The position numbers and the translations under genes were made by a program. Positions 1 to 28,812 of a stretch of 64,000 nt of DNA are shown one piece after another (position 1 is the stretch's first letter; the number at the start of each line of letters is the position of its first letter). The notes under the pieces are model-generated. The model did not search any database. It was not told where the DNA came from and worked only from the letters and a program-made list of their open reading frames with translations. The stretch covers positions 111,494 to 175,493 of the forward strand of contig NZ_JAAIYA010000026.1 in assembly GCF_010894405.1 (NCBI RefSeq). The letters are read 5' to 3'. This DNA is from Pyxidicoccus caerfyrddinensis. GTDB lineage: Bacteria; Myxococcota; Myxococcia; Myxococcales; Myxococcaceae.

Positions 1-1496
1 ACCAGCGGCAGGCCCCACACCGTGGGCGCGTAGAGGTACGTGAAGAACAGGTAGCCGTCATACGCGTCGCGCGTGGTGGCCAGGTGATTCAGCAGCCCCG
101 GGCACAGCGGGCCCTGCTCCGCCACCCACTGCTCCTCGCGCAGCCGCTCGTTGGGCTTGTCGAACACCTGCCGCGACAGCCCGTTGAAGCCCCGGATGTT
201 GCGCGCCCGCGTCGACGGGAAGCGCAGGACCTTGATGCCGTCCACCTCGTCCGGTCCGGGCGGGAAGACGTTCTCCCAGGACAGGTGGTTCTTCGCGCAC
301 GTGGTCAGCACCGTGAGGTCCCAGTGCGGGGCCAGGTGCTCGGCCATCTGCGCGGCCAGCTTCTCCGCTCCGCCCGTCACCTCGCCGTAGCGCTGCACCA
401 CCAGCGCCACGCGCGGGCGCTTCGGCGCCTTGCGCGCTCTCGGCGCGTGCGGCGTCAGGAACCCGTCCAGAGCGCGGGAGAGGGCACTCTGCGCGGACGT
501 CGCGGAGAAGTGCTCCAGCCGGCGCTTCTGTCCGGCGAGAACGGGCTCGCGCAGGGACAGATCCTCGCTCAGGTCCACCGCCAGTTCCGCGAGGAAGGCG
601 AAGCGCTTCTGGTCGAAGGCCACCCCCGCGCCGCCGAGCGTCTCCGGTACCGCCGCAGCCGCATACGCCAGCACCGGCACCTCGGCCGCCATGGCCTCGA
701 TGAGCGGGACGCCGAAGCCTTCGTGCTCGCTCATGGAGACGAAGACGGACGCGGAGCGGTACGCCGCCACGAGCTGCGCGTGGCTCAGTCGTCCCAGGAA
801 GTGCACGCCGCTCAGGCCCTTCGCTTCACGCTGGAGCGCCTTGAAGTAGCGGCTGCCCGGCTCGTACCCGCCCACCATCAGCAGCCGCGCCTGGGGCCGC
901 AGCCGCAGCAGCTCGCGGTGCAGCGTGATGAAGTCCTCGAAGCGCTTGTGCGGCATCACCCGGCTGACGCCCAGCAGCACGGGGCCGGGGCCGGCGAGCT
1001 GCCGCAGCATCTTCGGGTCCGCGTTGTCCCGGCTGAAGCGCTCCGGTTCGATGAACAGCGGCACCGTGTGGACGTTGCGGTAGCCCGCCGCGCGCAATTC
1101 CGCGGCGTTGAAGGCCGACACGCCGATGGCCACGTCCGCGAAGGGCGCCATGGCCGCGAGCTGGGCACGCCCCGCCACCAGCGCATCCGCCAGCGGCAGG
1201 CCCGAGTAGAAGCGCGCGGGGCTGATGTTGTGGAACACCACGCCGCGGCGGCAGGGCAGGTGCATCAGCCGGCTGCTCAGCGGCGAGGCGATGCCGTGGT
1301 GATAGAGCACCAGGTCATCGGGCTGGGGCCGCAGCGCGGAGGCGGGGCTGGCAAGACCCTCCAGGCCCGCGCCCACCTCGTCCGCGTACAGCGCGCCCGC
1401 GTGGCCCATGCGGCGCAGCAGCAATTGGAGGTGCAGCGCGGCCTGCCCGGTGGCGTCGCCAGGGACGAAGCTGGGTATCAACTGGTGGATCGCCAT
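1..1496 (-). CDS. Two-module GT4-family glycosyltransferase; C-terminal end lies beyond the window start
   Basis: Own reverse-strand translation from the ATG at the complement of 1494-1496 gives MAIHQLIPSFVPGDATGQAALHLQLL... The first module has a classic GT4 EX7E region (VSMSEHEGFGVPLIEAMAAEVPVLAYAAAAVPE). A second Rossmann-like module (RVALVVQRYGEVTGGAEKLA...DGIKVLRF...) runs off position 1. Absent from the ORF track because there is no stop codon inside the window. Confidence 0.75.
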   Translation of the reverse strand, partial: MAIHQLIPSFVPGDATGQAALHLQLLLRRMGHAGALYADEVGAGLEGLASPASALRPQPDDLVLYHHGIASPLSSRLMHLPCRRGVVFHNISPARFYSGLPLADALVAGRAQLAAMAPFADVAIGVSAFNAAELRAAGYRNVHTVPLFIEPERFSRDNADPKMLRQLAGPGPVLLGVSRVMPHKRFEDFITLHRELLRLRPQARLLMVGGYEPGSRYFKALQREAKGLSGVHFLGRLSHAQLVAAYRSASVFVSMSEHEGFGVPLIEAMAAEVPVLAYAAAAVPETLGGAGVAFDQKRFAFLAELAVDLSEDLSLREPVLAGQKRRLEHFSATSAQSALSRALDGFLTPHAPRARKAPKRPRVALVVQRYGEVTGGAEKLAAQMAEHLAPHWDLTVLTTCAKNHLSWENVFPPGPDEVDGIKVLRFPSTRARNIRGFNGLSRQVFDKPNERLREEQWVAEQGPLCPGLLNHLATTRDAYDGYLFFTYLYAPTVWGLPL

Positions 1497-1526
1497 GCGC
1501 GCCCTGCCTATCACACGAGTCGTGCT

Positions 1527-2630
1527 ATGAGGCGCACCGTGTCCACCGGCCCCATCGCCTTCGACGCGACGCTCTGGGACGAGCCGACCACCGGCATCGG
1601 CCTGTACACCCGTTGTCTGGCCTCCGCCCTGGAAGGGCTGGACGTCCGCCTGGAGAAGCTGGGCGCGCACGGCTCCGGCGAGCACCCCCGCGGCGACGTG
1701 GGCCGCACCTCGTGGACGCTCGGCCGGCTGCCCCGGTTGCTCCAGCGCGTGGGCGCGCCGCTCTACCACGCGCACGGCAACTTCAACCTCCCGCTCACCC
1801 GCGTGCCCGGCACCGCCTACGTGCTCACGGTGCATGACCTGATTCCGTTGCTGATGCCGGAGACGGTGTCCACCGCGTTCCGCTGGCAGTTCCGCCTGTG
1901 GCTGACGCGCAGCGTGTCCCTGGCGGCCCGCGTGGTGTGCGTGAGCGAGCGCACCCGTCAGGACCTGCTGGCCCGCATCCCCGAGGCGGAGTCGCGCACC
2001 GTGGTGGTGCCCAACGGCGTGGACCACGTGCACGCGCCGGTGCTGGATGCCATCAGCGTGGACTTCCTGCGCGCCCTGTCGCTGCCGAAGGACTACGTGC
2101 TCTACGCGGGCTCGCTGGACGTGCGCAAGAACGTGGACCTGGTGCTGGACGCCATGGAGCGACTCCGGGAGCGCGGGCGTCCTGTGTCGCTGGTGCTGGC
2201 GGGACAGAGCTGGTTCGGCTCGGGCCGGGTGGAGAAGCGCATCGCCCGGATGCGCTCCGAGGGGCATGACCTGCGCTCGCTCGGCTACCAGGCGGACCCG
2301 GTGTTCTACGAGCTGATGCGCCGCGCGGCCGTGTTCGTGTTCCCCTCGCGCTACGAGGGCTTCGGCCTGCCGCCGCTGGAGGCGATGCACCTGGGCACGC
2401 CCACCATCGTCTCCACCGCGGGCTCGCTCCCGGAGGTCTGCGGCGACGCGGCCCTGGCGGTGCGGCCGGAGGACGCGGAGGGGCTCGCGCAGTCCATCGA
2501 GCGCCTGCTGAAGTCGCCCGAGGAGCGGCGGGCGCTGGCGGAGAAGGGCCGGGAGCGGGCGGCGAAGTACACCTGGAAGCGGACCGCCGAGGCGACCCTG
2601 GCGGCGTACGAGGCCGCGCTCCAGCGTTGA
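1527..2630 (+). CDS. GT4-family glycosyltransferase
   Basis: C-terminal 367 aa of the 84..2630 track ORF, starting at the internal ATG at 1527 (MRRTVSTGPIAFDATLWDEPTTGIGLY...). GT4 signature FVFPSRYEGFGLPPLEAMHLGTPTIVS. The upstream part of the track ORF is antisense to the divergent GT gene and reads as Arg-rich junk. Confidence 0.85.
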   Translation: MRRTVSTGPIAFDATLWDEPTTGIGLYTRCLASALEGLDVRLEKLGAHGSGEHPRGDVGRTSWTLGRLPRLLQRVGAPLYHAHGNFNLPLTRVPGTAYVLTVHDLIPLLMPETVSTAFRWQFRLWLTRSVSLAARVVCVSERTRQDLLARIPEAESRTVVVPNGVDHVHAPVLDAISVDFLRALSLPKDYVLYAGSLDVRKNVDLVLDAMERLRERGRPVSLVLAGQSWFGSGRVEKRIARMRSEGHDLRSLGYQADPVFYELMRRAAVFVFPSRYEGFGLPPLEAMHLGTPTIVSTAGSLPEVCGDAALAVRPEDAEGLAQSIERLLKSPEERRALAEKGRERAAKYTWKRTAEATLAAYEAALQR

Positions 2631-2651: not shown

Positions 2652-3191
2652 ATGCGCATGCGAAAGCTGAGCTGGAGTGGCTTCGTGCTGTTCGGTCTGC
2701 TCGCCGGTTGCGCGAGCACGCCGGTGAAGGAGGAGCCGTCGGACGCCACCACGGAGGAGCGCCGTGAGGCGGAGGGCGGGGAGGAGGCGGAGGAGTCCAT
2801 CAAGAACACCACCTCCGAGGAGGGCAAGGCGCCCGTCCAGCCCATCATCGTGAGCGCGAGCCCGCAGGCGAAGGACCTCATCCGCATCGAGGGCATGCGC
2901 ATCCTGCGGGGCGTGCTGGACGTGAGCGTGTCCCACGGCGGCGGCTGCAAGGAGCACACGTACGCGCTGGCCTGGGACGGCACCTTCACCCAGGGCACGG
3001 ACGGCACGCCGGTGGCGAACCTGGTGCTGGTCCACGACGCCCACGAGGACCGCTGCAAGGCCATGAAGTACGCGACGCCGCGCTTCGACCTGGCGCCCAT
3101 CACCCAGGCCTTCCAGCAGAAGTACGGCAAGTCCACCGGCGCGGTGGACCTGGCCCTTCCGGGACAGGCCACCCTTCGCTACGAGTTCTGA
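2652..3191 (+). CDS. Lipoprotein, unknown function
   Basis: MRMRKLSWSGFVLFGLLAGC has a lipobox (LAGC), followed by an acidic linker (EERREAEGGEEAEES) and a folded C-terminal domain. The 3' end overlaps the convergent giant gene by 13 nt. Confidence 0.6.
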   Translation: MRMRKLSWSGFVLFGLLAGCASTPVKEEPSDATTEERREAEGGEEAEESIKNTTSEEGKAPVQPIIVSASPQAKDLIRIEGMRILRGVLDVSVSHGGGCKEHTYALAWDGTFTQGTDGTPVANLVLVHDAHEDRCKAMKYATPRFDLAPITQAFQQKYGKSTGAVDLALPGQATLRYEF

Positions 3192-6100
3192 GGCGGCGGC
3201 TTCGGAAGCTCGGTGACGCCGGGGATGTGCGTGGCGCCGGACTGCGTGAGCTTCTGGATGTCGTAGCCGCGCAGCGTCCCGGTGCGGACCGTGTCGCGCC
3301 AGTGGAAGACGGCGCGACGGCGGACCACCTCGGTGCGGAGGTCCTCCGGGCAGACCAGCTCCACGCGGGCGGGCGCGGGGCCCCAGGCGAAGCGGGCGCA
3401 CTCCACCTGCGGGTCTCCCTCCACGGGCTGCTGGCGGCGCAGCAGCGCGTAGGCCGCCTCGGGCACGGGTGTCACCGGCTCGGCGGTGATGCCCACCGTG
3501 AGGAATATGTCCTTGTTCTCGGTGACGCGCGACGAAGCCTCCGGCAAGGCCTTCAGGGTGAGCTTCAGCATCAGTGCCTCGCCCGGGCCGAGCACCGCGG
3601 GCTCCGTGCCGTCGCGCAGGTCCAGCAGCGATACCTCGCGCAGGCGCTCGGGCGCCACCGTGAGCGCGGGGGTGTCCACGCCGTCCTCGCGGACGCTCAG
3701 CGGCCGGGTGACTCCGCCCGGGCCCACGCGCAGCAGGGACAGGAGCGCCGGAAGCCCCGTCGTACCGTCGTCCCAGTCGAAGCGCAGCGCCATCCGGCTG
3801 TCCGGGTTGTACTCGCCACGGTCCGTGGCCAGCGTCACCGCGTGCAGAGCCTTCTGCGTCCCGTCCAGCGTCTTGACCAGCTGGGTCGCCCGCCGCGTCG
3901 TCGAGGCGAGGTGGCGGTTGTACTCGGGGTCCTCGAAGTGGAGGAACACGGGTTCCAGCGGCAGCGGCAGCACCCCCGGGTCCACCACCCGCAGCGGGAA
4001 GGTGAGCGTCTGGATGAAGCCCTCCGCGCCCGTCACGCGGCCGACGCGGGCGTGCACCGCAAGCACCCGGCCGGGCGCGAGGCGCTGGGAGAAGTCCGCC
4101 CGCACCTCCTCGGCGGAGCGTCCTCCCGTCCCCGCCAGCTTGAAGCCCAGGCGCCCTCCCTCCGCGGGCTCGGCGGGGCCGTAGGCGAACACCTTCCCGT
4201 CCAGCGGAATCTCCAGCGCGAGCGTCCAGTCCGCCAACGAGGCCCCCGCGTTCACGTCCGCCGACAGCGTCAGCGTGCCATCCCAGCTGGCGGGGATGGC
4301 ACCGTGCAGCGGGGCTTCCAGGACGAGCCGCAGGCGGTGGACGGGGCCGTCACCGAACGACGCGATGAAGGCCTCGTCCGCCGGAGAGGCCGTGGCCAGG
4401 ACGCTGTGCCCGGGTTCGAAGTGGCTGGCCCAGGTGCGCAGCGCGGCGCCGGGGTGCCGCGCGTCATTCTCCCGCAGCGGCACCGGGCGTGGCACGCGGT
4501 GCTGCACCGGGATGCTGCCGGAGACCATGCCCTGCCCGCGGTGGGCCTCGTCCCGGGTGGGGTCCAGCCCGGCCTGACGCAGGAGCTGGTGGCGCATGGC
4601 CAGCATCACTCCCGGCCGCGAGCCCGTGAGGTGGAAGCGCACCGTACCGGGCAGCACCGGTTGCCACCGCTTCATCCGGTCGGGCTCGTCCACGTTGAGC
4701 AACACACGCGGGCTCATCAGGGGCAGGGGCAGCTGGGGCAGCACCGGCAGCAGGCCCTTGATGGCGCGGGCGCGGAACAGCGGCGGCAGGCCCGCGGTGG
4801 GCCCGGCGGCGCTCGTGGCGGAGCGGAACTGCACCTGGTGCTGGAGCGCCTGCCACCACAGCGAGAAGGGCTTGTCGGGCACGCCGTCACGAGGGCCCAG
4901 CGTGCCCGTCGCCCCCTCCTGCTCGTGGGTGTAGTGCACGGTGGTGCGCAGCGCGCTCAGGCCCCAGGGCCAGTCGCGCGGCGATTGCTGCTGCGGCCCG
5001 CTCGCGGGCCGGTGGGCGCGGTGGATGGGCTGGACGCCGGTGACTTGCGGCGGCGCCAGCTCCAGGGGGCGCACCTCCTGGGGCAGCTCCTGGCCGCCGA
5101 AGTGCCCGTCGCGGAAGCGCAGCCGCGCCGGGGGCGAGCGCAGCTTGAGCACGCGCCGCGACAGGCCTCCCGTGCGCTCGAGTCCGGGGACGAGCGAGAA
5201 GGAGTAGGCGGTGGTCAGCACCGCTTCGTCCTCGCCCGACGCCACGGTCCGGTAGACCTCCCGGAACCGCAGCACGGCGAGCGGCGACTCGGGGGTGAGC
5301 CGACGGTGCATCTCCCGCGCCCAGGCGATGGCGGAGGCGCGGACCGCGTCGAGGCCCTCTCCGCCCTCCTTCACGTGGCTGGCGGCGGGCAGCAGGGCGC
5401 GGCGCGTGCGGTCCAGGCAGAGCAGCTCCACCACCACCAGCTCCGGGATGTCGTCCTCGCGAGGGGCCGCGGGGCGGAAGCCGAGGCCGAGGTAGGGGCT
5501 CACGGCGAGGCTCATCGGCGCGCGGACGGCATCCGCGCGCGGCGCGAGCGCGGTGGCGGCGGGGAAGCGGCGCGTCCCGGTGGCCGTCGACGGCCGGAGC
5601 CAGCCACCGCTCACGAGCTGGAGCGCGGTGAGCAGCCAGCCTGACGGCAGCGGCGTGGAGCTGCCGCGTTGTGTGAGTACGGCCTGGAGCGCGAGGAGCG
5701 CGTCCGGGCGCCACTGGAGGCGCGCCTGGCCCGGCAGCGGGTCCACTCCTCCGGAGGCCTTGGGCTGACCGGGCGGATAGGCGTTGCGGACCGGGTCGAA
5801 GGCGTACTGGAGCGCCGTGGCCCGGCTGAGCCTTGCGGGCGTCTCCGGCCTCGCGGCCAGCACGCTCTGGAGCGTGTCGAAGCGGGGCTCCGGCAGCGGG
5901 TGCTGCACTCGGAACCAGCTCTCCTCCAGCGACAGCGGGTCCAGCCTCGACCAGCTGCGCGCGCGGGCGGTGTCCAGGCTGGTGAAGGTGACGGCGGCGG
6001 CCTTGCGGTCGGCCCAGCCGCTCAGCGCCAGGGCCAGCGGGGGCAGCGCGGCCGGCTGCTTGCGCCGGCGCTCCAGGTTCAGCACCGGGTCCACCTGGAG

Positions 6101-9100
6101 CTGCGAGGCCGGGCCGGACGGGGCCTCCAGCCCGTCACGCGTCCGGTCCTGCAGGCGCCCGAGGAAGGGCACCACCAGCAGCAGCCAGCGCGGGTCCGCC
6201 GGGTCCGTGGGGCCGTAGTCCTGCGGGTTGCTCAGCAGGGCCTGCTGCGTGCCGCTCGGGAGGAACTGGAGCGTCGTGGCCGCGGTGGCCTTCACGGGCT
6301 CGCCCTTCACCCAGTGCAGCGCGGTGGCCTCCACCAGCAACGTACCGGCGGGCAGCGCGGCCAGCTCCGGAGCGCTCCCTCCCGCGAGCATCGTCCGGAC
6401 CTCCTGCCCCAGGTAGCCCGCGAGCACCTCGCCCACGGGGTCCACGTCGTCGGTGGGCGAGACGGCATGCAGGTCGCTGTCCTTGAAGCGCTGGAGGAAG
6501 GCCTTGAGCCCGGCGGGCGAGGCGATGCGCACCTCCTGCAGCGCCGTCCAGCGTCGGTCGTTGGACAGGCGCGGCGTGGTGAAGCCTTCACCCGGCGCCA
6601 CGTCCACGAGCTGGTGCTCCACCACCGCGAGGAACTGCCAGGACCTGCCGTCCGACAGGCGGAACAGCAGGTCTCCGGCGCTCACCTCGAAGGCGTCCCG
6701 TGGCAGCGCGTGCTGGTTGAAGAGGATGCGCGCCGTGTGTCGGACGTGGGCCAGTGGCACTGCCCCCGCCGCGGCCGGGACGGTGAGCGTCACCTTCGAC
6801 GCGTCGTACTGGAGGCTCGCCGGGTAGGAGAGGAGGTCCTTCACCTCCAGGTAGCCGTTGAGCAGCAGCGTCTCCGTCCAGGTGCTGTCCCGCGACTGGC
6901 CGGTGTAGCCGAACACCAGGTCGCCCGCGGAGGAGCCCGCCACCTGCGCCAGCGTGGGCTGCGCCGGGAGCGGCTCCGCCTGGAGGAAGGTGCCCCAGCG
7001 GCAGCTCAGCAGCGCCTCCACGAACGAGGTGCGCAGCCGCAGCGTGGGGACGTCCACCACGCCGGTGGCCGGTAGCAGCACGTCGAAGGACAGCGCCACG
7101 AAGCCGGGCGCGTCCTGGCCCACCAGCGACATGCCGGGAAGCAGCTGCAGGCCCGAGCTGCCCGGAGAGGGCATGGGCGCGCGGTAGCGGCTCCAGGTGA
7201 GCTGGAGCGCGCCGGGGCCGGTCTCGAGCGCCACCTCCGGTGGGGGCCGCTCCAGCTCCAGGTCGTCCAGCAGGAAGCCCGACTCCCAGATCGCCCTTCC
7301 CCGGCCGGGAAACGTGACGGCCGCCGCATCCTGACTGGTGCCCACCACGCCAAAGCGCACGCCCGCGCGGAAGGCCGAGCGCGCCACCGGGGTGGCCGTG
7401 GGACGGACCGCGCCTGGCGCGGTGGCTCCGGGCACCACCGGCACCCAGCGCACGGGCCGGGTCCGCGGGCCCGGCGGCATCTCCTGGAGGGCGCGGCCCA
7501 GCCGCACGTCCACCAGCAGCGACACCCGGTACTCGAGGCCGCGCGGGTCCAGCTCCACGGCGACTTCCTTCGGTGACAGCGGCTCGGCCGCGTCCAGCTC
7601 GGCCGGCACCATGCGCACGGAAAGCGGGGACGCCTTCCCGGTGAAGGTGAGCGCGGGCAGCGGCACGTTCCAGGTGGCGCCGAACAGCAGGAAGGCGAGC
7701 TGCACGCCGTCGACGCGGAGCCCGTCCTTCTCCGGTGTGAGGGCCGCGGAGCGGACGGTGAGGCGCGGGGCGTCTCCCAGCTCTCCGTTCGCGAGCTCCA
7801 GCGGCCATTCGCACTCCGCCGGAGCGCCCGGGGACGCCTCCAGCGCCGCCGCCGTCAAAGCCAGCCCGCCGCCGGACGGCGGCCGCTCGAAGGTGAGCCG
7901 GAGCGCGTTGCCCAGGTCCACCAGCTCTCCGCCGCCGGACAGGGGCAACTGCACGCGGCCCACCAACTCCAGTCGCGTCACCCCGGCGGCATCGAGCCGC
8001 ACCCGCTCCAGCGTCAGCGGGTAGAAGCCCAGCCCGAAGAGGGTGAAGGCGTCGACGTCGGTGGGCGGCGCCAGGCGCCACTCGTAGCCGTTGAGGACGT
8101 TGTGCTCGCGCGAGCCCGCCTCGGGGTCATTCACGTCCTGCGCGGCGGCGGAGCGGGTGCTGTCGCGCCGGAACTCACCCGCCGCGGCCGGCAGGTCCCT
8201 GAACCAGAGGCCCCACGTCAGCGCGCCACCCGTGATGGGGTCCTTCCCCAGGCCCAGCGTCACCGCCTCCAGCGTGGACACCAACTCCACCGCGGCGCCG
8301 CCCTCCAGGCGCACCGCCGTCCGCAGCTGCGTGCCCACGAGGCGCGTGGCCTTGCGCCACAGGCCCCGCTGGTCCCTCAGCCCCTCGCCGGCCTTCGCAT
8401 GGGCAGCCATGCTGCCCGCCACCAGCGTGTACGCGTCCGCGGAGGGCGTGCCCGCCGCGAGCCGGATGCCTCCGTCCGCGCTCTCGAAGCGGCCGGTGAA
8501 GCCCTCCAGGGCGGCCTCGCCCTTCAGCTCCACCGAGGCCGCGGGTGCTCCCGCCGCGTTGGCCACCACCAGCGAGCCCGGGTACGTGCCCAGCGCCAGC
8601 GTGGGGCTCACCGTCCACGTGTGCGGCTCCACCAGCCCCTGGACGCGCACGGCGCCGCCGCTGGAGGAGAAGGCGTCCACCGCGTCGGCGCTCGCCAGGA
8701 CGGCCAGCTCCGAGAGGCGGGACCAGTGGTCCGCCAGCGTCTCGCGAACCAGTGGCCGGGGCGGCTCCGGCGGCGAGTCATCCGCTGTGGGGGTGACTTC
8801 GTCCGGGCGGCGCGTGGGCGGCTTCAGCCGGGCCAGGGCCTGCGGTTCGTCCGTGTACGGCAGGTCCAGGCGGAGCTGCACCGGCAGGGTGGTGCCGGCG
8901 TCCAGCGGCAGCCCGGAGGCATTGGCGCCCGGCTTCAGCACCAGGCCTGGCAGCGACAGCGACACGAGCGGCAGGTCTGGCCTCCCCTTCCACTCGCACG
9001 CGGGGACCTGGGGCCCCCGTGCCCGGGGCCACGCGGCGGCGCCGTTCGTCCCGGTGACGCCGAAGCGCCAGCCCGAGGGAAGGGTGAGGCCGTTCATCTC

Positions 9101-20200: not shown

Positions 20201-21622
20201 CTCGGTGATGGGCGTGCCCTTGAAGCCCCAGGTGAGGCCCAGGTACTCCACGGGCTTGCCGTTCTCGTCCTTCGGTGCCAGCTCCGCCTCGTTCGCGTAC
20301 AGCTTGAGGCCGTCGCTGTGCCGCACGGCGAAAGAGAAGGTCTCCCAGTTGAAGGCCAGCTCCGCGGTGGTCTCCAGGTTGAGCGGGCCGAAGCTCACCT
20401 TCACCGTGACGGGCACGGCGATGGAGTGGTTGGGGATGTCCAGGGTGATGGCGCTCAGGTTCGGCTTCACCTGGAGGAACTGCGGCGCGTCCTCGCCGCC
20501 CGGCTCCTGCTTGAGGAAGGGCAGGGTGAAGGGCGCCTTCTCCAGGTTCAGCTTGAAGCCGAAGCTCCAGTCCTCCGCCCGCATGCTGAAGGAGTCCGTG
20601 GCGGTGGGCAGGCACAGCGTGTCGGGGTCGCCGTAGTTGAGCGGCTCCAGCGCGGTGGTGAGCTGGCGGAGGAAGTGGGGCAGCCGGGCCTCCTTCCACT
20701 CGAACTCCGCCAGGGCCAGCGTCACGCGCTGTTTCGCGGCGATGGACAGCTGGAGCAGCGGGTCTGGCGACGCGCGGCCCTGGTCGGCGTGGACCTCGCG
20801 GCCCTCGTCGCGCTCCCAGGCGAAGTCGCTCGTCACCGTCAGACCGGAGCCCTCGGCGAAGGTGAGGTAGAGCCCGGCCTGGCTCAAGGAACGGTCGTCG
20901 CCCTCCGCCTTGGCGTTCACCACGACGCTGAGCTGCGTGTCGTCCGGGAGCTGGAGATTGAGCCCGGGCAGGGGCAGCGCGCGGCCCATGCCGCCCAGCT
21001 CCACGTCCACGCGGACCTCGCGCAGCGGCTGTCCGAACACGAGGCGGAAGGTGATGGCCTGCCGCGCGAAGGTCTGCCGGTCGAGCTGCTCCCAGGTGAG
21101 GGCGAGGCACTCGCGGCCGAGGTGGAAGCCGGCGATGTCCAGCTCGCTGCCATGCTCGAACAGCCCGGGCAGGAAGGCGCGCAGGCGCACGTCGGTGGCG
21201 GTCAGCTCCAGCGCGCTGCTCACGCGCAGGGTGCCCCGGAACGAGAAGCCGGGGGCCTCACCCGCCCCGCCGTCCAGGCCGAGCTGCCCCGCGTCCAGCT
21301 GCACGCAGATGGGGATGTCGTGGAGGATGAGCTCCAGCTCGTCGGTGAACCTCACCTCCGCGCGCAGGAAGGTCAGCCCGTCGCGCACCTCGCCCACGGT
21401 GAGCCGCGCGCCGTCCTGGCCGGCCAGCGGCACGGACAGCTCGCCTTCGATTCCCAGCCACGCGGTGGCGTCGAGCGTGCCGTTCCCCGTGCGCGCCTCG
21501 TAGTCGAGCACGTGGACGCCGCCGAAGAGCTGGCGCAGCGCGGGTTCTGGGAACATGCCGCCGGGAATGGCGGTATCGGCGAGGAAGCCATCGAGGCGAC
21601 CCAGGGAGCGGTAATAGGGCAT
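11204..21622 (-). CDS. Giant protein (3472 aa), no recognisable family; second gene of the operon
   Basis: Uninterrupted 10.4 kb ORF starting 15 nt after the stop of the 757-aa gene. N-terminus MPYYRSLGRLDGFLADTAIPGG has no signal peptide. Internal Lys/Ile/Phe-rich beta-strand patch and C-terminal tandem repeats are described separately. Confidence 0.8.
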   Translation of the reverse strand: MPYYRSLGRLDGFLADTAIPGGMFPEPALRQLFGGVHVLDYEARTGNGTLDATAWLGIEGELSVPLAGQDGARLTVGEVRDGLTFLRAEVRFTDELELILHDIPICVQLDAGQLGLDGGAGEAPGFSFRGTLRVSSALELTATDVRLRAFLPGLFEHGSELDIAGFHLGRECLALTWEQLDRQTFARQAITFRLVFGQPLREVRVDVELGGMGRALPLPGLNLQLPDDTQLSVVVNAKAEGDDRSLSQAGLYLTFAEGSGLTVTSDFAWERDEGREVHADQGRASPDPLLQLSIAAKQRVTLALAEFEWKEARLPHFLRQLTTALEPLNYGDPDTLCLPTATDSFSMRAEDWSFGFKLNLEKAPFTLPFLKQEPGGEDAPQFLQVKPNLSAITLDIPNHSIAVPVTVKVSFGPLNLETTAELAFNWETFSFAVRHSDGLKLYANEAELAPKDENGKPVEYLGLTWGFKGTPITENGKTRYHLFTLATDKYNYQLQQAPGASFEVKYLHVSDEPIVFAITDFALTPKGLNVTATVTDRPAKLNGLDTRFRFNDSRLVIVENRVQDFTLNGSGPMPPALVGDAMADISLQLAQRDGALTLVSGGARLRGSKLLHCQSTRFEFQVDAIGLRFVNDGRFHLYFVLTGSAQFRLAESDDAEGALALLPKLRIDLVECPLTGDARVISKHVRFLIELPKPLSFSFLGCFELELRGIGFIPQADVFGGDGAMLLTGQLKFAQGAGDTPDTRVDYHRLYIGLPEEGHFLPRLHFGNLPVNLNFGAAFRLNGVVDFVDSTTEKGFSGEGTLQIQGLPTFAAAFSFLRVRRDESSPWLRAWFIYLEARQISLMIPVVQLYVREVGLGFGYRYTLASIKAADQANDVRELLKELKKLSRTQGDLSKRDRWALDLEDPGQDPRWTIVLRAMISQTSASASPLQWDENAEKLISCLFLLDAVIAFRSDLTFFMAVRGWLNANYYDYVSNYKGLRERPFVSGFVLLSPRQKRLLAHVASNPNGQLGPHPQLPEFVEKALTSCQFSATLLVEPGLLHYELGWPNMLRWSQKLGPLEAELRGGFIWRLSREELVTGTSFLARAKLDFSAQVNLGIVGVRVSAQASLAYGARYIGLLSLKDPVGSSALYGGIGIEAHIRFAIEFWIKLKLGFIKIKKSFRFSFGIDFTAGLEVGMVGLSPNGIGLRGTGTLSLSVMGRSFHLSAHIGMREGKVAEALERTKHVLDYGLEATDVEGIPGVEGAALRSGRPAPAALRADTLRTEEAPPALQRRTLAEGTFEAPGYTVFAIRSEDPKGTHYFVLMPQGERPTPSGEVEEEPGFLPVPPAEGAWAQPGYNDFVLTVPRAAKDTYTLEQLDPLTGMWKPHAPTPGQPSQDVAWRAHWETELEKKGERYSETGVPEVGDETFTLARYLRHAFVTEVDALGATIRLRDPARLPPTRSEDVVADDRVHNPTDNAFEAAVRGAVEQFRGSPFFKRDDTRVEYDRLLGQAYQDRTTVYSDDGKVPDDAPGLRKMLEEQQAHQLRGMVVHDIVADLRALAASPDGSGLTPEQRERSVALHMGLVFRVSGGLPAWLDGVPERGEPEPRLRQRIRVEDTTCSGSEVSVRTFNVRDTNFTRNPPQFRRVQQLTDARTIALAWELVWEQPPRAGLTPAQASPEHHLVHYHVRRRGLESNTPEAVYTLKGAQTLHREGGALKRLQPRFQLVDHFHEDTAEDLAALPLSGRSYLYTITPYDFAGNAGRPLTVVATRYPSEPPLVPVNAECVVRYKVDLAILARRDVGTPRVVTPDRVFLEWSEPSAAPGQPQVPVKTYVLVFRRETSLPIGSYGLDSATQRAGARSLPTSNARPLPTDVRVTVVPTGPREKRVAEVPLTKLRELRVLPAENDAWRPEAWRLFMQTESGNGVPSALAPVQLLLRVVRADAPADDTDNRRREERRPAELEWLPSPVVLPVLPPEDVRATVEDAHFPMPVGTVGHPEAFRFNGQLTGVLHQKHPAGVRCIRFRWNQGPSGAPDHPLDLHAGYHLLELDTDAHTTETFGDADRLSRALRGLQEVQMLPAGDMQLVPGDTLATSAWEAWYPSTLQRRRTPAARAAGSQLSLTPGPSWRESLLEWPHWPGLTDSPAPSRTSALHPVLAGIVQRLQRPAGDSQLPAFTVDLQISPPTQPGSFADLLRATAAQADPYGWGVLQRLGLSMAFSLREPRTGEVLKGQALLDAVRDVLAQQGVLPDEAARHLHVELLFQPGRAVALREGAVVAEDLLALVQLSLRPVVRQRALYSAIHLEGPAGAPLDVVLHLKPATTCSVVEQTNPAAGQAELEPEPGATTGTVSKRTFVLPLNGKTQVLLRTRSAAEALSLADLPGAGVALGRPLSPEAQALLTQEPLPAYVTYRETPAAELVLAQSPHTLSADARALLRTTLAQEPAALTALLGMRLEPLFQVTDERTTYFPADVEPLAALLAHDEDTSDEKLRPEAVQWRRFRRYAESLSSTDPGMPAEQKIRIPASGSALEDVLPDVLTWSQRFFDATGRIDFTQDGPLVAPEGPWVATAYPRASSPAYSSPDESGRLTYDHLLEDAWAHNYRFYVRPFARYDLLWQGLRQSPLLYPDAPAVEPARPDPLAGGLDVVMDRTRAVDMPLVLSSTRLDADAPLEPSAPDEPLPPVVPSEPGSTWEVVVAQHPEQALMERNQTLARQLGFRQVAFTLLRGFAFPGWVSALEGAAGLSGPLVLTPVEDRVPEIPGTLPEQPEHLDLSGRLSVEDARGLDLPLRVGAFQQGAQVIQWEGLPFYYKHRLLLMAQTHSTVSPLNEVRQRDFEYRAPEKPVAWVEGMTRTGWVPTPPFGGTTPASGLTVRARGLGIPLRRLWESLPERAQQRWGSERPRPGGRGPSWLPDLDVVYQVVEEHQGNVEVQAELYFDAAAGAFAKRQLGGHFLADIAALSLPEVPLGTEEDRFLLAVTVQQVTELELSRPYTAPQQASIPEPTRSKLAFNARRLSFVGVLTHEDRQNLAVLDALDRQAVGRVHDGWYARVPVASAMDVPASLADVVDFEKPEDLPLVWTGPLDAAQAQALRALPGDEELRRTVETLIATAAGAGADTVTTVVAPRGPEQLPPALAQKVELRTDAAGTAYTTLVWKGHLWAEHQLEIDRWVRVTALADAFARLKEAFDAAVATRPLPAARPLAGELPAVLRGRLGITDAKLRWKGPAPTDAEREALAALAGDAAFLGARTRLLAAIDTDRTVPHLGERPAEDTLPEFVRAQLRFATGTVTWTAPAPTDAQRAALLAMPGDAQWQGTVRLLLQLVDVDQEVDLAPVKRRPRQGDLPDALSARLTVEPTAVHWRGPLDDITQREQLLALDGDAPFVAALQALVADLDARVLQVPFTAPLRPTLDAAHPLSARLVIGGAVLRYHGLMTRDEALRLRALFPRGAEKAAVERLHKQSHSRGMDDRKLGIRARRGSARPSPIHPLDSRPL
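11330..12590 (-). repeat. Five degenerate tandem repeats of about 65-70 aa inside the C-terminus of the 3472-aa protein
   Basis: Repeated units read in the translation: LPLVWTGPLDAAQAQALRALPGDEEL... / LRWKGPAPTDAEREALAALAGDAAFLG... / VTWTAPAPTDAQRAALLAMPGDAQWQG... / VHWRGPLDDITQREQLLALDGDAPFVA... Consensus is roughly W-x-GP-x4-[EQ]-x-[EQ]-AL-x-AL-x-GD. Coordinates are approximate (±30 nt). Confidence 0.55.
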
Positions 21623-21637: not shown

Positions 21638-23911
21638 CTACGAGAGGGGAAGCTCGTCGGGGCGGATGACCCACAAGGTCCCGACGATGCGGTTGTCCCA
21701 GGTGACGGAGTTGGCGGCCCAGGTGGTCTGCGTCTGGGCCCAGTTCTGGCCGCGCAGCGCCTGGATGTTGGCGTCGTTGACGCCGTTGAGCGCGCGCTGT
21801 TCGACCTGGTAGCGGTCGATGACGTAGTCGCGCAGCACGTTGTGCAGGGGCGACACCAGGCACCCCGCGGAGCCGGTGCCGGTGTTCTGGCCGCTCATGG
21901 TGCCGCGGTGGATGCGGACGTTCACCTTGCCGCCGTGGGTGGGTGACGTCTGCGGGTCGTGGCCCGCCTCGGGCACGTCCTCTGTGACGTGCTCGCCGAA
22001 GTAGAAGCGCGCCTCGCGTAAGCCGTCGTAGGCGGTGACGTCCGGGTCCACGACGGTGAAGGTGTAGTTGCGGAACTGCGGGCCACTGCCCGTTCCGGGC
22101 GAGCGGTAGCTGGCCCAGTGGTAGCGGCGGTTGCCCCGCACGGACGACAGGTTCTGGTCGTTGGCAGGGTAGTTGCGCGAAGTGAAGCTGGTGTAGCGCA
22201 CCTGCGCGTGCACCTCGCCGTTGTGCACGACGAACATCACCCCGTCGTAGTGGTCATAGAAGCGGGGGTTGGCCGGGGTGGCGGGGACGGCCGGACCCAG
22301 GTCATAGGCCAGCGCGGGCAATTCGCCGCTGAGGCCAGCGGGGATGTGCCAGGCGGAGGTTCCGCCGCCGAAGTCCGGGTTGCCGTCCAGGGTGAGGGTG
22401 CGCTGGACGCGGTCGAAGGCGGTGATGCGGTAGGTGCGGCGGGGCCGCGCGGTGTCCGAGGGCAGGTAGACGGTGTCGAAGCGCGCGTTGAGCTTGTTGA
22501 TGTTGGGGGTGCCGTCCAGGCGCACCGTGTTGTCCGCGGTGCGCGTGGCGGAGGCGCCCTGCAGCCGTCCGCCCAGCGGGTCGATGAGCACCAGCACCTG
22601 CCGCAGGCTGATGCGCCACGGGGACGGATTGCCGCCGAGGTTGGGCTCGCTGGCGCCGGCCTCCAGCGTCACCTGCCGGTTGGCCACGTCCACCGCGGTG
22701 ATGCGGTACCACTTCCGGGGGCGCGCGGTGTCCGCGTCGAGGTAGAGCAGGTCCTTCCCGGCGCGCACCCGGCTCAGGTCCATGGTGCCGTCGAGGGTGA
22801 CCTGGTTGCCCGCGGCGGTGGCGGCGGCGCCCTCCGGGTCCAGGAAGTCGATGGTGGTGGCCGCCGTGGGCGTGCCAGGCACCGCGCCGGCGAGCCAGGG
22901 GTCGTCGAAGAGCGAGTAGAACTCGACGATGGCCTCGAGCTGGAAGAGGTTGAGCGCGTCGCGGTCGTTGAACTCGAAGGGCGGGGCGGTGCTGCCCGCG
23001 GGGGCGTGGCCCGCGCGCTTGAGGAGCTGCTCGCGGTAGAGCGCCTTCTGGTGGTTGCCCACCTGCCGCCACTGCGCGGCGGTGAGGTGGAGGCGGTCCT
23101 TCGCCTCCTTGAGCACGCTGAACGGATAGAGCGACGCCTGCACCAGTCCGAGCAGCGCGGCCGGCGTCGCCGCGTCGATGACGGGCCACTTCCTGGGCGC
23201 GAGGGTGAGGAGCTCATCCACCTTCGGCTGCCCCTCCTCCACGAAGTCGCGCATCACGTCGTAGAGGTGCGACGGGTCCGTGGTGCCGGAGAAGGTGAGC
23301 ACGGAGAAGCCCACCTCGCGGGTTCCCGCCTGGCCTGCGACCGGCGCGGCCCGGCCGATGGCATGTCCCGCCGTCACCGGCACGTCCACCTGCCCGCGGA
23401 TGAGCAGGTCCACCACCCGCGCGCGGTTGAGGCCCTGGTTGGGGATGAGGAAGTCCAGCTGCTCCGCCAGCGCGGCCTCCAGGGAGCCCGTCTCGATGTC
23501 CAGGTAGATGAAGCCACGGAGGCCGCCCAGCTGCTGCGCGCGCTGTTGGAAGGCCTGCGCGCCCGTCATGACGAAGGACGGGTGGAGGTACAGCTTCACG
23601 CGGGGCGGGAGCGGCTCGTAGTCCTCGGGCAGGTCGAAGGGCTCCGTCGGGTCGGGTGCTCCACCCAGCGGCGGGCGCGCGGACAGCGTGCCGGCCATCA
23701 CCGCGAGAAGCTGCCCGGTGTCGGTGGTACGGAGCCGGAGGTGGTCGCGGAAGGCGTGCTGAGGCCCGGGCGTGGACGGGGCCGGCCCATAGCCGTGGAC
23801 GCGCGTCCATGGCGTGGGGGCGACGAAGGGCGGGTTGATGAACAGCCGGAGCGGTTTGGCCAAGCGCGACTCCCCCTCAGATTCGCGTCGATGCGGCGCT
23901 GACGCTTCCAT
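21638..23911 (-). CDS. 757-aa protein, first gene of the giant operon; two internal ~62-aa repeats and a C-terminal L,D-transpeptidase (YkuD)-like motif
   Basis: ATG at the complement of 23909-23911. The C-terminal region contains IHRGTMSGQNTGTGSAGCLVSP, which fits the YkuD catalytic signature H-G-T-x(8-12)-S-x-G-C-[IVL] (compare IHGT...SHGCIR). No signal peptide. Confidence 0.7.
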   Translation of the reverse strand: MEASAPHRRESEGESRLAKPLRLFINPPFVAPTPWTRVHGYGPAPSTPGPQHAFRDHLRLRTTDTGQLLAVMAGTLSARPPLGGAPDPTEPFDLPEDYEPLPPRVKLYLHPSFVMTGAQAFQQRAQQLGGLRGFIYLDIETGSLEAALAEQLDFLIPNQGLNRARVVDLLIRGQVDVPVTAGHAIGRAAPVAGQAGTREVGFSVLTFSGTTDPSHLYDVMRDFVEEGQPKVDELLTLAPRKWPVIDAATPAALLGLVQASLYPFSVLKEAKDRLHLTAAQWRQVGNHQKALYREQLLKRAGHAPAGSTAPPFEFNDRDALNLFQLEAIVEFYSLFDDPWLAGAVPGTPTAATTIDFLDPEGAAATAAGNQVTLDGTMDLSRVRAGKDLLYLDADTARPRKWYRITAVDVANRQVTLEAGASEPNLGGNPSPWRISLRQVLVLIDPLGGRLQGASATRTADNTVRLDGTPNINKLNARFDTVYLPSDTARPRRTYRITAFDRVQRTLTLDGNPDFGGGTSAWHIPAGLSGELPALAYDLGPAVPATPANPRFYDHYDGVMFVVHNGEVHAQVRYTSFTSRNYPANDQNLSSVRGNRRYHWASYRSPGTGSGPQFRNYTFTVVDPDVTAYDGLREARFYFGEHVTEDVPEAGHDPQTSPTHGGKVNVRIHRGTMSGQNTGTGSAGCLVSPLHNVLRDYVIDRYQVEQRALNGVNDANIQALRGQNWAQTQTTWAANSVTWDNRIVGTLWVIRPDELPLS
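22340..22790 (-). repeat. Two tandem ~62-aa repeats inside the 757-aa protein
   Basis: LDGTMDLSRVRAGKDLLYLDADTARPRKWYRITAVDVANRQVTLEAGASEPNLGGNPSPWRIS versus LDGTPNINKLNARFDTVYLPSDTARPRRTYRITAFDRVQRTLTLDGNPDFGGGTSAWHIPAG. Coordinates approximate. Confidence 0.6.
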
Positions 23912-26791: not shown

Positions 26792-28141
26792 TCATCCGCA
26801 GTTGTAGAGGGGCACCAGCTCGGTGACGCAGGTGTCCGGGTAGCGGGTGCCGGGGGCCACCTCGACGAATGTCAGCCGCAGGCAGAGGTCTCCAGAGGGC
26901 TGGGGCAGCGTGTCCCGTCTGGAGCCTGGTGTCCGGGTGGCCGCGACATCCTCCTTGCCGGACTCGGAGATGACATGTGCCTCGGCGTCGGGGCGGTCCG
27001 CGAGCGCCAGGTCGACCTCCACGAAGTCCTCCGGGGCCGCGCAGGTGGCCACCCGTACGCGGCGGGGCCGCCCGTTCTCCCCGTAGGTCTTCGCGCTTCG
27101 CGTGTACCCCGCGACGAGCCCCACGCCCTCGAAGTGACAGGGGAACATGGGTGGCGTCGCGGGAGGGCCCGCACGGACCTCCAGCCACTCACCCGCGCCG
27201 TCACCCTTGCTCCCCTCGCACCACGCGGTGTCCGCCCTGCCATCCAGGACATGGGCCGGGGCATAGCGGCCGCCGGCCAGCGTGCTCGACGCGGTGACGG
27301 AGAGCGGCAGCTTCAGCGGATTGAAGCGCGCGCGCTCCACGGTGAGCTGCCTGTGCCGCGCGAAGGCCTCCTTGTTGAACCGGACCGAGAGGAACGGAAG
27401 CTGGTCCAGGTCCACCTTCTCGAAGTGCCAGCGTGCTCGCGCCGCTTCCGGTTTCGCACCCGCCGGGCCGAATATTTCGGCACGTCCCGCGTACGGACCG
27501 AAGTCCACGGTGACGTCCACGCGCTCGGCCTGGCCCTTCCACCAGCCGGCGGGGAACAGGGGGTAGCGCAGCCACCGCCCGTCCACATGCGGCAGCGCCG
27601 CCTTCGACGTCTCCACATCCTGGAACAGCAGCTCGCCGCTGTACTCGAGCCGCAGGGGAACCGCCTTGCCGCTCGGAATGGTCAGCTCCGCGACGCACCA
27701 GCCATCCACGTCGAGCGGCTGGAGGAGGACCTGCGCGAAGGGAAGCGGCTGCACGTTGTCGCGAGGGTCCTCGATGCGCGCCTGGGTGCGCACCACCTTG
27801 CACGGCACCCTCCGTCCCGCGAGGGAGATGCGGATGCTGCCGGCCGTGACGTCGAGCTTCTGGCCCTCGTCGTCGACAGCGAACAGCGGCACGCCGTAGG
27901 AGGCCTTCACCTTCGCACCCTCGTTCGCGAGCACGTAGTCCGCGCGGACGCGGTAGCGCTCCAGGCCCGTCACGGTGATGGAGAGGTCCTCGGAGACGAG
28001 CCGGACCGGGAGGTCCGTGCGGGGCTGCAGGTTGCCGGTGGCGGTGGGCCCCGACCACGCCACGGGGCCGCCGTTGGGCCATGCACGGCCCGCCCCGAGC
28101 AGTGCGAACACGAAGACTGGAAGCAGGAGGGCGCGGAGCAT
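26792..28141 (-). CDS. Secreted protein with C-terminal F5/8 type C (discoidin)-like region
   Basis: Signal peptide MLRALLLPVFVFALLGAGRAWP. C-terminal LDGRADTAWCEGSKGDGAGEWLEV resembles the discoidin TAW...EWL core. Confidence 0.55.
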   Translation of the reverse strand: MLRALLLPVFVFALLGAGRAWPNGGPVAWSGPTATGNLQPRTDLPVRLVSEDLSITVTGLERYRVRADYVLANEGAKVKASYGVPLFAVDDEGQKLDVTAGSIRISLAGRRVPCKVVRTQARIEDPRDNVQPLPFAQVLLQPLDVDGWCVAELTIPSGKAVPLRLEYSGELLFQDVETSKAALPHVDGRWLRYPLFPAGWWKGQAERVDVTVDFGPYAGRAEIFGPAGAKPEAARARWHFEKVDLDQLPFLSVRFNKEAFARHRQLTVERARFNPLKLPLSVTASSTLAGGRYAPAHVLDGRADTAWCEGSKGDGAGEWLEVRAGPPATPPMFPCHFEGVGLVAGYTRSAKTYGENGRPRRVRVATCAAPEDFVEVDLALADRPDAEAHVISESGKEDVAATRTPGSRRDTLPQPSGDLCLRLTFVEVAPGTRYPDTCVTELVPLYNCG

Positions 28142-28207
28142 GTCACCTCCGGTTCTAGGCGGGCACTCGGGCCCGTGTCGATTGCCCGCCCATGCGATGT
28201 CCGGTGT

Positions 28208-28729
28208 TCAGCGCGTGGCGGGGCGGGCCTCGGTGATGCCCTCGGCCATCAGGTCCTCACGCAGCTTCGTGAGAACCTTGCCGAGCAGATTCAGTCCGCG
28301 CCACTTCGACGGGTCCTGGATGCGCGGGTCCTCCGCGCCCAGGCCCACGCCCCAGATGCGGTCCAGGGGACTGGCCTCCACCAGCTCCGTGCCCTTCGTG
28401 GCCAGCAGCGCCTTCAGCAGCTCCGCGCTCTGGGTGAACTTCGCGCGATTGCCCTCGTAGACGATGCGCTCCCGCTCGCGCTCCCACACGGCGGCGTCGA
28501 AGTCGCGCACCTTGCGGCCCAGCGCCTTGTGCGTCTTCGGAGAGGCGGACTTCAGGATGCTCGCCAGCACCTCCGCGTCCCCGAAGAGGCGTGCCTTGCC
28601 CGCCATCATGTACTGCTCCGCGCACATGTAGCGCACGCCCTCCACCACGAAGTCGGACCGGTGCCACTGGGAGAAGGGGGACTCCTCGCGCCAGAAGAAG
28701 GTGAACCTGCGCTGCTCGGCTCCGTCCAT
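28208..28729 (-). CDS. NADAR-family protein (YbiA/DUF1768-like N-glycosidase)
   Basis: RFTFFWREESPFSQWHRSDFVVEGVRYMCAEQYMMAGKARLFGD...IVYEGNRAKFTQ...DRIWGVGLGAEDPR matches the conserved NADAR blocks. Start placed at the internal ATG (MDGAEQRRFTFFW). Confidence 0.8.
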   Translation of the reverse strand: MDGAEQRRFTFFWREESPFSQWHRSDFVVEGVRYMCAEQYMMAGKARLFGDAEVLASILKSASPKTHKALGRKVRDFDAAVWERERERIVYEGNRAKFTQSAELLKALLATKGTELVEASPLDRIWGVGLGAEDPRIQDPSKWRGLNLLGKVLTKLREDLMAEGITEARPATR

Positions 28730-28812
28730 GTCTCGTGCCTCCTGCTTGGTGTGGAGAATACACCAACGTTCCACGCGCGCGAGCCTGACACGGGCACTAC
28801 ACTGCCGGCACG

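Follow-up and report, generated by a model that had tools for sequence, protein, structure and literature searches.

What does the first protein of a giant-gene operon do for the proteins encoded behind it? We address this for gene A of Pyxidicoccus caerfyrddinensis, which lies on the minus strand of the 64,000-nucleotide (nt) stretch of DNA analysed here (hereafter, the window) and is followed by genes B and C, encoding giant proteins. An earlier note, made from the sequence alone, had described near the C-terminus of A a motif of the kind found in YkuD-type L,D-transpeptidases and had suggested a connection of the operon with the cell wall. Our analyses suggest that the C-terminus of A may be a highly divergent YkuD-fold Cys/His enzyme acting on peptidoglycan stem peptides and serving B and C, a reading by analogy to which we assign a probability of about 0.5.

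The His/Cys motif and its relation to YkuD

The YkuD-type motif HRGTMSGQNTGTGSAGCL is encoded at window positions 21857-21910 on the minus strand; PTHGGKVNVRIHRGTMSGQNTGTGSAGCLVSPLH was found within the translation of the 757-amino acid (aa) open reading frame (ORF) of gene A, and HGGKVNVRIHRGTMSGQNTGTGSAGCLVSP was likewise confirmed to be present. The pattern H-x(12-18)-[ST]-x-G-C-[ILVM] matched only this site in the six frames of the window (approximately 128,000 residues) and appeared in 6 of 20,000 shuffles of protein A. Homologues of A were sought among 5.8 billion proteins; the 55 recovered belong to Myxococcota, Sorangium, Crocosphaera, Nakamurella, Micromonospora and metagenomes, and 44 of these (35-59% identical overall) were aligned. 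H668, S681, G683 and C684 are invariant in all 44 (residues are numbered by the 757-aa ORF; 16 is to be subtracted for the annotated 741-aa protein), and position 682 is Ala in 30 of them and His in 1. Cys684 is the sole cysteine of the window protein. Full or almost full invariance is also seen elsewhere in the C-terminal domain, at D553, H554 and D556 (DHYDG), G593-N594 (RGN), Y597, N615, K662, R694 and a C-terminal W-x-I-R-P-D-E-x-P; R750, also invariant, is one of several additional polar residues not found in YkuD.

The His668-Cys684 spacing of 16 lies inside the published window of 14-19 residues, which belongs to the motif H(S/G/D)X14-19C (PMC4599014); a second published form of the YkuD motif is HXX14-17[S/T]HGCh (bioRxiv 10.1101/2020.02.18.954545). 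An AlphaFold2 model of residues 540-757 was obtained with a mean predicted local distance difference test score (pLDDT) of 86.8 and a predicted template modelling score (pTM) of 0.85. As modelled, His668 ends a strand (666-669) and Cys684 stands directly before another (685-687), which is followed by a helix (690-709), so that the predicted secondary-structure setting of the pair is the canonical YkuD one. About half of the approximately 210 residues of the domain superpose on the YkuD fold core.

Profile-profile comparison placed the motif in register with that of known enzymes. When the family profile was aligned by hhalign with four canonical YkuD domains, 31 columns were matched (P=7e-4, probability 26%); the alignment is confined to the His...S-x-G-C segment, in which His668 falls on the catalytic His and S-x-G-Cys684 on S-H-G-C. 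A set of 113 PF03734 domains was aligned over the same 30 columns (score 23.8, P=0.0066), and enlarging the YkuD profile in this way lowered the probability from 26% to 6%. None of 200 column-shuffled templates reached the score of 23.8 (12.3 +/- 2.4, maximum 20.0), and a reversed template gave 11.9. The His...S-x-G-C motif proposed in the earlier note is thus real: it is unique in the window, its dyad is invariant in 44/44 homologues and hhalign finds it in register. The position given there for the presumed nucleophile also holds at the level of the alignments, in which C684 is invariant and falls on the catalytic Cys. The motif site was correctly put at the C-terminal end, but the domain appears to measure about 210 aa (nt 21641-22264) and not the approximately 120 aa (21638-22100) first proposed; it therefore extends 5' of coordinate 22100.

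Two groups of results weigh against an assignment of A to the YkuD enzymes that act on the wall. The first concerns the domain itself. In hmmscan, whole A and its last 180 aa gave no match at E<=1 to PF03734, PF13645 or PF10908, in a search in which four canonical YkuD domains, used as a positive control, matched PF03734 with E values of 1e-22 to 1e-27. No NCBIfam model matched A, and PDB sequence (phmmer) and profile searches with A and its C-terminal profile gave no meaningful match. Foldseek with the domain model returned nothing at E<=0.001 from the PDB, with Pgp2 only at rank 13 (E 2.4, template modelling (TM) score 0.28). Neither the PF03734 profile match nor, by Foldseek, the structural match that the earlier note had named as checks was thus obtained. 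The hhalign probability is low (6-26%) over some 30 columns, and the transpeptidase signature [S/T]-H-G-C-h-[R/N] is incomplete, A having S-A-G-C-[LIV]-V-S-P and its family no Arg or Asn at +2 after the Cys. The second group concerns export. No signal peptide or transmembrane segment was found in A, B, C, the 44 A homologues or 14 C homologues, and the 64-kb window holds no secretion, contractile injection system (CIS) or type VI secretion system (T6SS) genes, which leaves the access of A to peptidoglycan unexplained. This absence of an export route in the locus is the main weakness of every wall-directed model.

When a profile of residues 540-757 was run against 1.84 billion cluster representatives, 215 proteins were recovered at E<=1e-3, 200 of them below 1e-10. 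The YkuD-like domain is mostly C-terminal in these proteins, which reach about 1200 aa. No sequence bridge to canonical YkuD was visible in this search, and by these profiles the family appears closed. Judged by the sequence models, the domain is too divergent for PF03734 and its membership of that family is unsupported. The resemblance had not gone wholly unseen before, as UniRef labels the Archangium homologue of A a 'YkuD domain-containing protein'. Taken with the motif and the model, our results indicate that the fold core and catalytic dyad of the C-terminal domain of A are very probably those of YkuD, and that the domain probably works like YkuD as a remote homologue.

Architecture of A and the A-B-C cassette

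Codon-position G+C in gene A is of the coding type, with a G+C content of 0.92 at third positions (GC3), and the product is 100% identical to a 741-aa hypothetical protein of P. caerfyrddinensis. The ORF described in the earlier note (21638-23911) stands, but the protein is probably 741 aa long and not 757: a TTG codon at 23863, with the ribosome-binding site GGGGGAG 7 nt upstream, is probably the true start and matches the NCBI record. The extreme N-terminus that this start yields (M-x-K-P-L-x-L-F-I-x-P-P-Y; window 23822-23863) is strongly conserved across phyla from residue 1, which supports the TTG start; it may be a functional terminus, e.g. a packaging or interaction signal. No convincing sigma-54 promoter was seen by eye upstream of A, where no formal scan was run.

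The AlphaFold2 model of full-length A (pLDDT 90.4, pTM 0.92) has four parts: a LytM-like domain, a helical domain, two beta repeats and the YkuD-like domain (Table 1). The N-terminal part carries the M23/LytM fold. A gave no Pfam match to PF01551/M23, the zinc and catalytic motifs HxxxD and HxH were not found, and no His is invariant in residues 17-215 among the 44 homologues, the best conserved being H39 (22/44), H110 (24/44) and H183 (25/44). With no invariant His and no Pfam match, we regard this domain as degenerate LytM-like and not as an active M23 peptidase. In the helical linker domain, K289, L296, E326 and E330 are invariant in the homologue alignment. The beta repeats are all-beta in the model and share 47% identity with each other (BLASTP, E 2e-20); additional copies are inserted in some homologues of A. 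Three homologues (P0025, P0050 and P0051) carry extra repeats of this approximately 75-aa type or long helical insertions inside the YkuD-like domain, so that large insertions can be accommodated between the N-terminal hairpin region of this domain and its catalytic segment.

Table 1. Positions in the window of the three operon genes and of the parts of A
Feature	Position	Strand	Details
Gene A	21638..23911	-	757-aa ORF, with translation; first gene of the giant-protein operon
N-terminal M23/LytM-like domain, degenerate	23276..23854	-	residues ~20-212
Helical linker domain	22913..23275	-	residues ~213-333; from the secondary structure of the model
Two tandem ~75-aa beta-domain repeats	22337..22834	-	residues ~360-445 and ~450-525
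YkuD-like C-terminal domain	21641..22264	-	residues ~550-757, ~210 aa
His668 codon	21908..21910	-	proposed general base; invariant in 44/44 homologues
Ser681-Ala682-Gly683-Cys684	21860..21871	-	Cys684 (codon 21860-21862) is the proposed nucleophile
Gene B	11204..21622	-	3472 aa; starts 15 nt past the stop of A
Gene C	3179..11182	-	2667 aa; starts 21 nt past the stop of B

With gaps of 15 and 21 nt, A, B and C form an operon, and A (757 aa) stands at its head before B (3472 aa) and C (2667 aa). B and C had no match in Pfam, NCBIfam, PADLOC, PHROGs or the PDB, and neither A nor its C-terminus matched PADLOC or PHROGs. PDB searches with B, the B N-terminal profile, C and the C-family profile gave nothing meaningful. 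A homologue search with the first 1000 aa of B also returned nothing, for which we guess candidate saturation to be the cause.

The gene order is conserved. A B-family protein follows A directly in Archangium, Crocosphaera, Nakamurella, two Clostridia metagenome-assembled genomes (MAGs) and one metagenome contig. It is the N-terminal module of B that is conserved, in distant cases just its first 150-300 residues. Homologues of C were found at 26 metagenome loci on contigs with a G+C content of 0.36-0.70, and a B homologue lies directly upstream of C on the same strand in all 18 loci for which upstream DNA is available. From the A-B adjacency and the position of B directly upstream of C it follows that A-B-C is a conserved cassette.

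Several features of the B and C families were seen alongside. In loci L020-L041 and in the window (3179-21622) the two families always lie next to each other, B first and C second. In the C family a great many Trp, Pro, Gly and Arg positions are invariant, and motifs such as HFEDPEYNRRL and WWQAxQH occur. The C-terminus of B (about 400 aa; window 11204-12400 approximately) shows by eye several units of about 70 aa of the form 'L-x-W-x-G-P ... L-x-x-L-x-G-D-x-x-F', and the unit is visible twice in the B family consensus.

The surroundings of the cassette vary. In the two Clostridia MAGs it is flanked by housekeeping genes, and there and on one other contig an unrelated protein of 1000-1400 aa ('U') precedes A-B. 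We considered 'U' as an equivalent of C and a 1654-aa family of Micromonospora as C-like, and rejected both, as comparisons with the family hidden Markov models (HMMs) were not significant. In four Micromonospora loci (L004, L016, L017 and L019) a gene of the 1654-aa family is followed by an A homologue (1358-1535 aa, with PG_binding_1) and then by a paralogue of about 920 aa, which keeps the LytM-like and helical half and is without the whole YkuD-like domain; L004 and L019 also hold a large gene, which carries DUF6603 in L004. A Rugosimonospora locus (L014) has relatives of both large actinobacterial genes. In Nakamurella multipartita (L001:12352-19285) an insertion sequence element (HTH_Tnp_1 plus rve transposase) lies between a 935-aa B-like gene and a 936-aa ORF, and the cassette may be disrupted in this genome. 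A regulator of the AAA_16-GerE (LAL) type is encoded upstream in the Rugosimonospora and Nakamurella loci. At L005:1-601 a gene with a CHAT (caspase-like) domain lies near an A homologue; L018:7722-8267 is a second, weak match.

Among the remaining genes of the window are those for polysaccharide synthesis, an Hsp70-like trio, NADAR and a sigma-54 activator. At 26792-28774 (-), 3 kb from the operon, a NADase-translocation/F5-F8 type C protein and a NADAR-domain protein (E 2e-52) are encoded side by side and may form an NAD/ADP-ribose-related pair. The segment 42353-47857 (-) encodes an HSP70-plus-DUF3731 protein (925 aa), an HSP70/MreB-like protein (620 aa) and a DUF2760 protein. An 848-aa GT4 glycosyltransferase, matched also by Pfam 'GT4-conflict' (E 6e-17), is encoded at 84-2630 (+), approximately 550 bp past the 3' end of C and on the opposite strand to it.

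Cell-wall context and comparison with known systems

Two peptidoglycan-enzyme folds occur within the single protein A, and this strengthens a cell-wall reading. As a YkuD-like domain with invariant His and Cys is fused to a second, inactive-looking cell-wall-enzyme fold, the A-B-C cassette probably works on peptidoglycan. Homologous loci point the same way. PG_binding_1 is present in the Micromonospora A homologue and its neighbours; among 14 C homologues, six carry a ConA-like Laminin_G_3 domain and one carries PG_binding_1 (E 2e-28) and PG_binding_3. The link between the operon and the cell wall drawn in the earlier note gains support from the LytM fold, by PG_binding_1 in homologues of both A and C, and by an Amidase_2 neighbour in locus L007.

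Injection-system genes are not neighbours of A in the window, but they are in two homologous loci. In L007 a Baseplate_J gene and the Amidase_2 gene lie beside A. In L012, from a Desulfobacter MAG, the A-type protein measures 1895 aa with N- and C-terminal extensions (L012:6998-12685), and its gene is immediately upstream of a putative hub gene and of Phage_base_V, PAAR, gp25 and Baseplate_J genes; a further locus, L009, has two genes in common with L012. An N-terminal extension of about 250 aa is common to the A proteins of L007 and L012 and to a neighbour in L007. Inspection of L007:9971-13330, L007:13412-17503 and L012 showed an N-terminal extension of about 250-460 aa shared with the neighbouring non-A protein. 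The C-terminal extension of the L012 protein (about 680 aa) contains no known domain, and a PDB search with it gave nothing meaningful. These extra domains of the injection-system-linked homologues may be cargo-loading or additional effector modules.

The closest likeness of the YkuD-like domain is to Csd6 of Helicobacter pylori, in which His160 and Cys176 are likewise 16 residues apart, no His precedes G-C (K-G-C) and the nucleophile is the only cysteine of the protein (PMC4599014). Csd6 and Pgp2 of Campylobacter jejuni are L,D-carboxypeptidases of the YkuD fold. They are exported periplasmic shape-determining proteins, contain an NTF2-like domain and, unlike A, are picked up by sequence models; the domain of A is larger by about 100 residues, has a C-terminal helical elaboration and its own invariant motifs (DHYDG, RGN and WxIRPDE), and A is without a signal peptide, is fused to a LytM-like domain and is co-encoded with giant proteins.

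A second likeness is to the T6SS effectors Tlde1/Tae5 (DUF2778, PF10908), which lack signal peptides and are delivered to target peptidoglycan by a contractile machine; for Tlde1, L,D-carboxypeptidase and exchange activity has been reported (bioRxiv 10.1101/2020.02.18.954545). Some A homologues adjoin spike, PAAR and baseplate genes. A differs in having no PF10908 match, a His-Cys spacing longer than that of DUF2778 and a multidomain product of 757 aa vs. approximately 170 aa, and the window has neither T6SS or CIS genes nor an obvious immunity gene: the gene maps show no small conserved gene between A, B and C or behind them, although no dedicated search was made.

With the canonical L,D-transpeptidases of PF03734 (Bacillus subtilis YkuD, Enterococcus faecium Ldtfm, Mycobacterium tuberculosis LdtMt2 and Escherichia coli YbiS/YcbB) A has the fold core in common, H...[S/T]-x-G-C in register and the same secondary-structure setting of the dyad. 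Unlike them it fails the family HMM, has S-A-G-C-[LIV]-V-S-P in place of S-H-G-C-h-[R/N], and carries no signal peptide or lipobox. The N-terminal domain of A resembles the dLytM factors EnvC, NlpD, DipM and SpoIIQ in lacking conserved zinc ligands; these are exported amidase regulators or channel components, whereas A is a signal-less fusion to a YkuD-like domain, with an amidase as neighbour of its homologue in one locus only (L007). Wall hydrolases of phage tails or ejectosomes (phi29 gp13, cyanophage A4 internal protein) offer a further parallel, as some A homologues lie in phage-tail-like baseplate loci. A itself has no phage homologues in INPHARED (50,697 phage genomes) or IMG/VR, so that a phage origin was rejected, and neither phage nor tail genes are present in the window. 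Precedents for wall-directed proteins without a signal peptide are Tlde1, phage tail lysins and the A homologues linked to CIS.

A proposed reaction and its alternatives

From the observed motif, its invariance, the similarity of fold and the conserved gene order we infer the catalysis, the substrate, the hydrolytic outcome and the site of action of A as follows. By analogy with Csd6, Tlde1 and LdtMt2, His668 would deprotonate Cys684, and the resulting thiolate would attack the carbonyl of the L-centre of the third stem-peptide residue, meso-diaminopimelic acid (meso-DAP). The terminal D-Ala would leave, and the backbone amides of the S-A-G-C turn would stabilise the thioester acyl-enzyme so formed. 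Water would most likely resolve the acyl-enzyme, giving trimming or opening of the L,D-carboxypeptidase/endopeptidase type and not 3-3 cross-linking; this outcome is favoured because the closest structures are Csd6, Pgp2 and Tlde1a and because the His and Arg/Asn of the transpeptidase type are missing. The LytM-like domain, its zinc ligands lost, would probably be a peptidoglycan- or partner-binding module, and the two beta repeats may act as spacers or binders. A would thereby edit or breach peptidoglycan where a B-C complex acts, be it in the wall of a target cell, in the manner of effectors that contractile injection systems deliver, or in that of the producer.

The same fold and chemistry could instead end in transfer, if an amine from a partner protein or a stem peptide resolved the acyl-enzyme; A would then anchor B and/or C or introduce local 3-3 cross-links. 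Canonical YkuD enzymes are transpeptidases and some of them attach proteins to meso-DAP, as ErfK/YbiS/YcfS (LdtA-C) do in anchoring Braun's lipoprotein (Lpp). The strict co-encoding of A with giant partners that have a conserved N-terminal module suits such a role, and anchoring was raised in the earlier note, too. Yet the best structural neighbours of the domain (Csd6, Pgp2 and Tlde1a) are hydrolases, A lacks both the His of S-H-G-C and the Arg/Asn at +2 that are typical of transpeptidases, the consensus sequences of B and C show no conserved C-terminal Lys/Arg acceptor at their termini, and proteins that would need anchoring outside the membrane carry no export signal. We consider transfer unlikely, though it is the strongest competitor of the hydrolytic scheme.

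The missing export signals can be read differently, as the mark of a cytoplasmic Cys/His peptidase or transpeptidase that works on something other than peptidoglycan: it might process or cross-link B and C, or use soluble precursors or recycling products of the cell wall as substrates. A, B, C and their homologues without signal peptides or transmembrane segments, and a window without secretion genes, are what such an enzyme would lead one to expect; the invariant polar residues that YkuD does not have (D553, H554, D556, N594, K662, R694 and R750) suggest an altered substrate site, and the similarity to true YkuD enzymes is weak. We rate this as quite improbable, since all characterised YkuD-fold enzymes act on peptidoglycan stem peptides, a LytM fold is present in the same protein, homologues of A and C contain PG_binding_1/3 and lectin domains, and the injection-system loci of some A homologues argue for a target outside the cytoplasm.

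A catalytically inert domain has still poorer prospects. In such a scaffold His668 and Cys684, together with D553, H554 and D556, would bind a metal or stabilise the fold, and A would do no more than bind peptidoglycan or a partner, much as its clearly degenerate N-terminal enzyme fold, the incomplete S-H-G-C-h-[R/N] motif and the silence of all sequence models might suggest. The dyad and the Ser and Gly of the oxyanion turn are, however, invariant across phyla and the single Cys is kept, a pattern expected of an active enzyme; Csd6 is active despite a similarly reduced motif, and the Micromonospora paralogue that lost the function dropped the whole domain instead of mutating it. Finally, a chance resemblance in a G+C-rich ORF, to which the lack of support from Pfam, NCBIfam and Foldseek might point, is effectively refuted by the rarity of the pattern in the six frames and in shuffles of A, by its invariance in the 44 homologues and by an hhalign score above all 200 shuffled controls.

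A-B-C as a whole might, tentatively, be an undescribed, self-contained machine directed at cell walls, in which B and C, together about 6,100 residues without a known domain, would form a giant delivery or wall-spanning structure independent of classical secretion and A would be the dedicated wall-editing subunit, bearing a new subfamily of YkuD-fold enzyme; the A module would have been recruited independently as a cargo or spike-proximal component of CIS. We regard this wider proposal as possible but doubtful. So read, A-B-C is spread over Myxococcota, Cyanobacteria, Actinomycetota, Clostridia and many uncultured lineages.

Carbapenems and copper target YkuD-fold enzymes, which take part in beta-lactam bypass, lipoprotein anchoring, the control of cell shape and T6SS killing. 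To these A adds a subfamily that escapes all Pfam and NCBIfam models and comprises about 215 sequence clusters; it has conserved motifs of its own and an unusual architecture, in which a degenerate LytM domain and two beta repeats are joined to a YkuD-like domain. The conserved A-B-C cassette, with its peptidoglycan-binding accretions and no secretion signals, is in our view more intriguing than the YkuD-like domain alone, and A gives a first functional handle on this giant-protein cassette, which has been without annotation. If A acts on peptidoglycan, it would become possible to address how signal-less proteins of 2,700-3,500 residues reach the wall, whether that wall is the cell's own or that of prey, and how the cassette is related to CIS.

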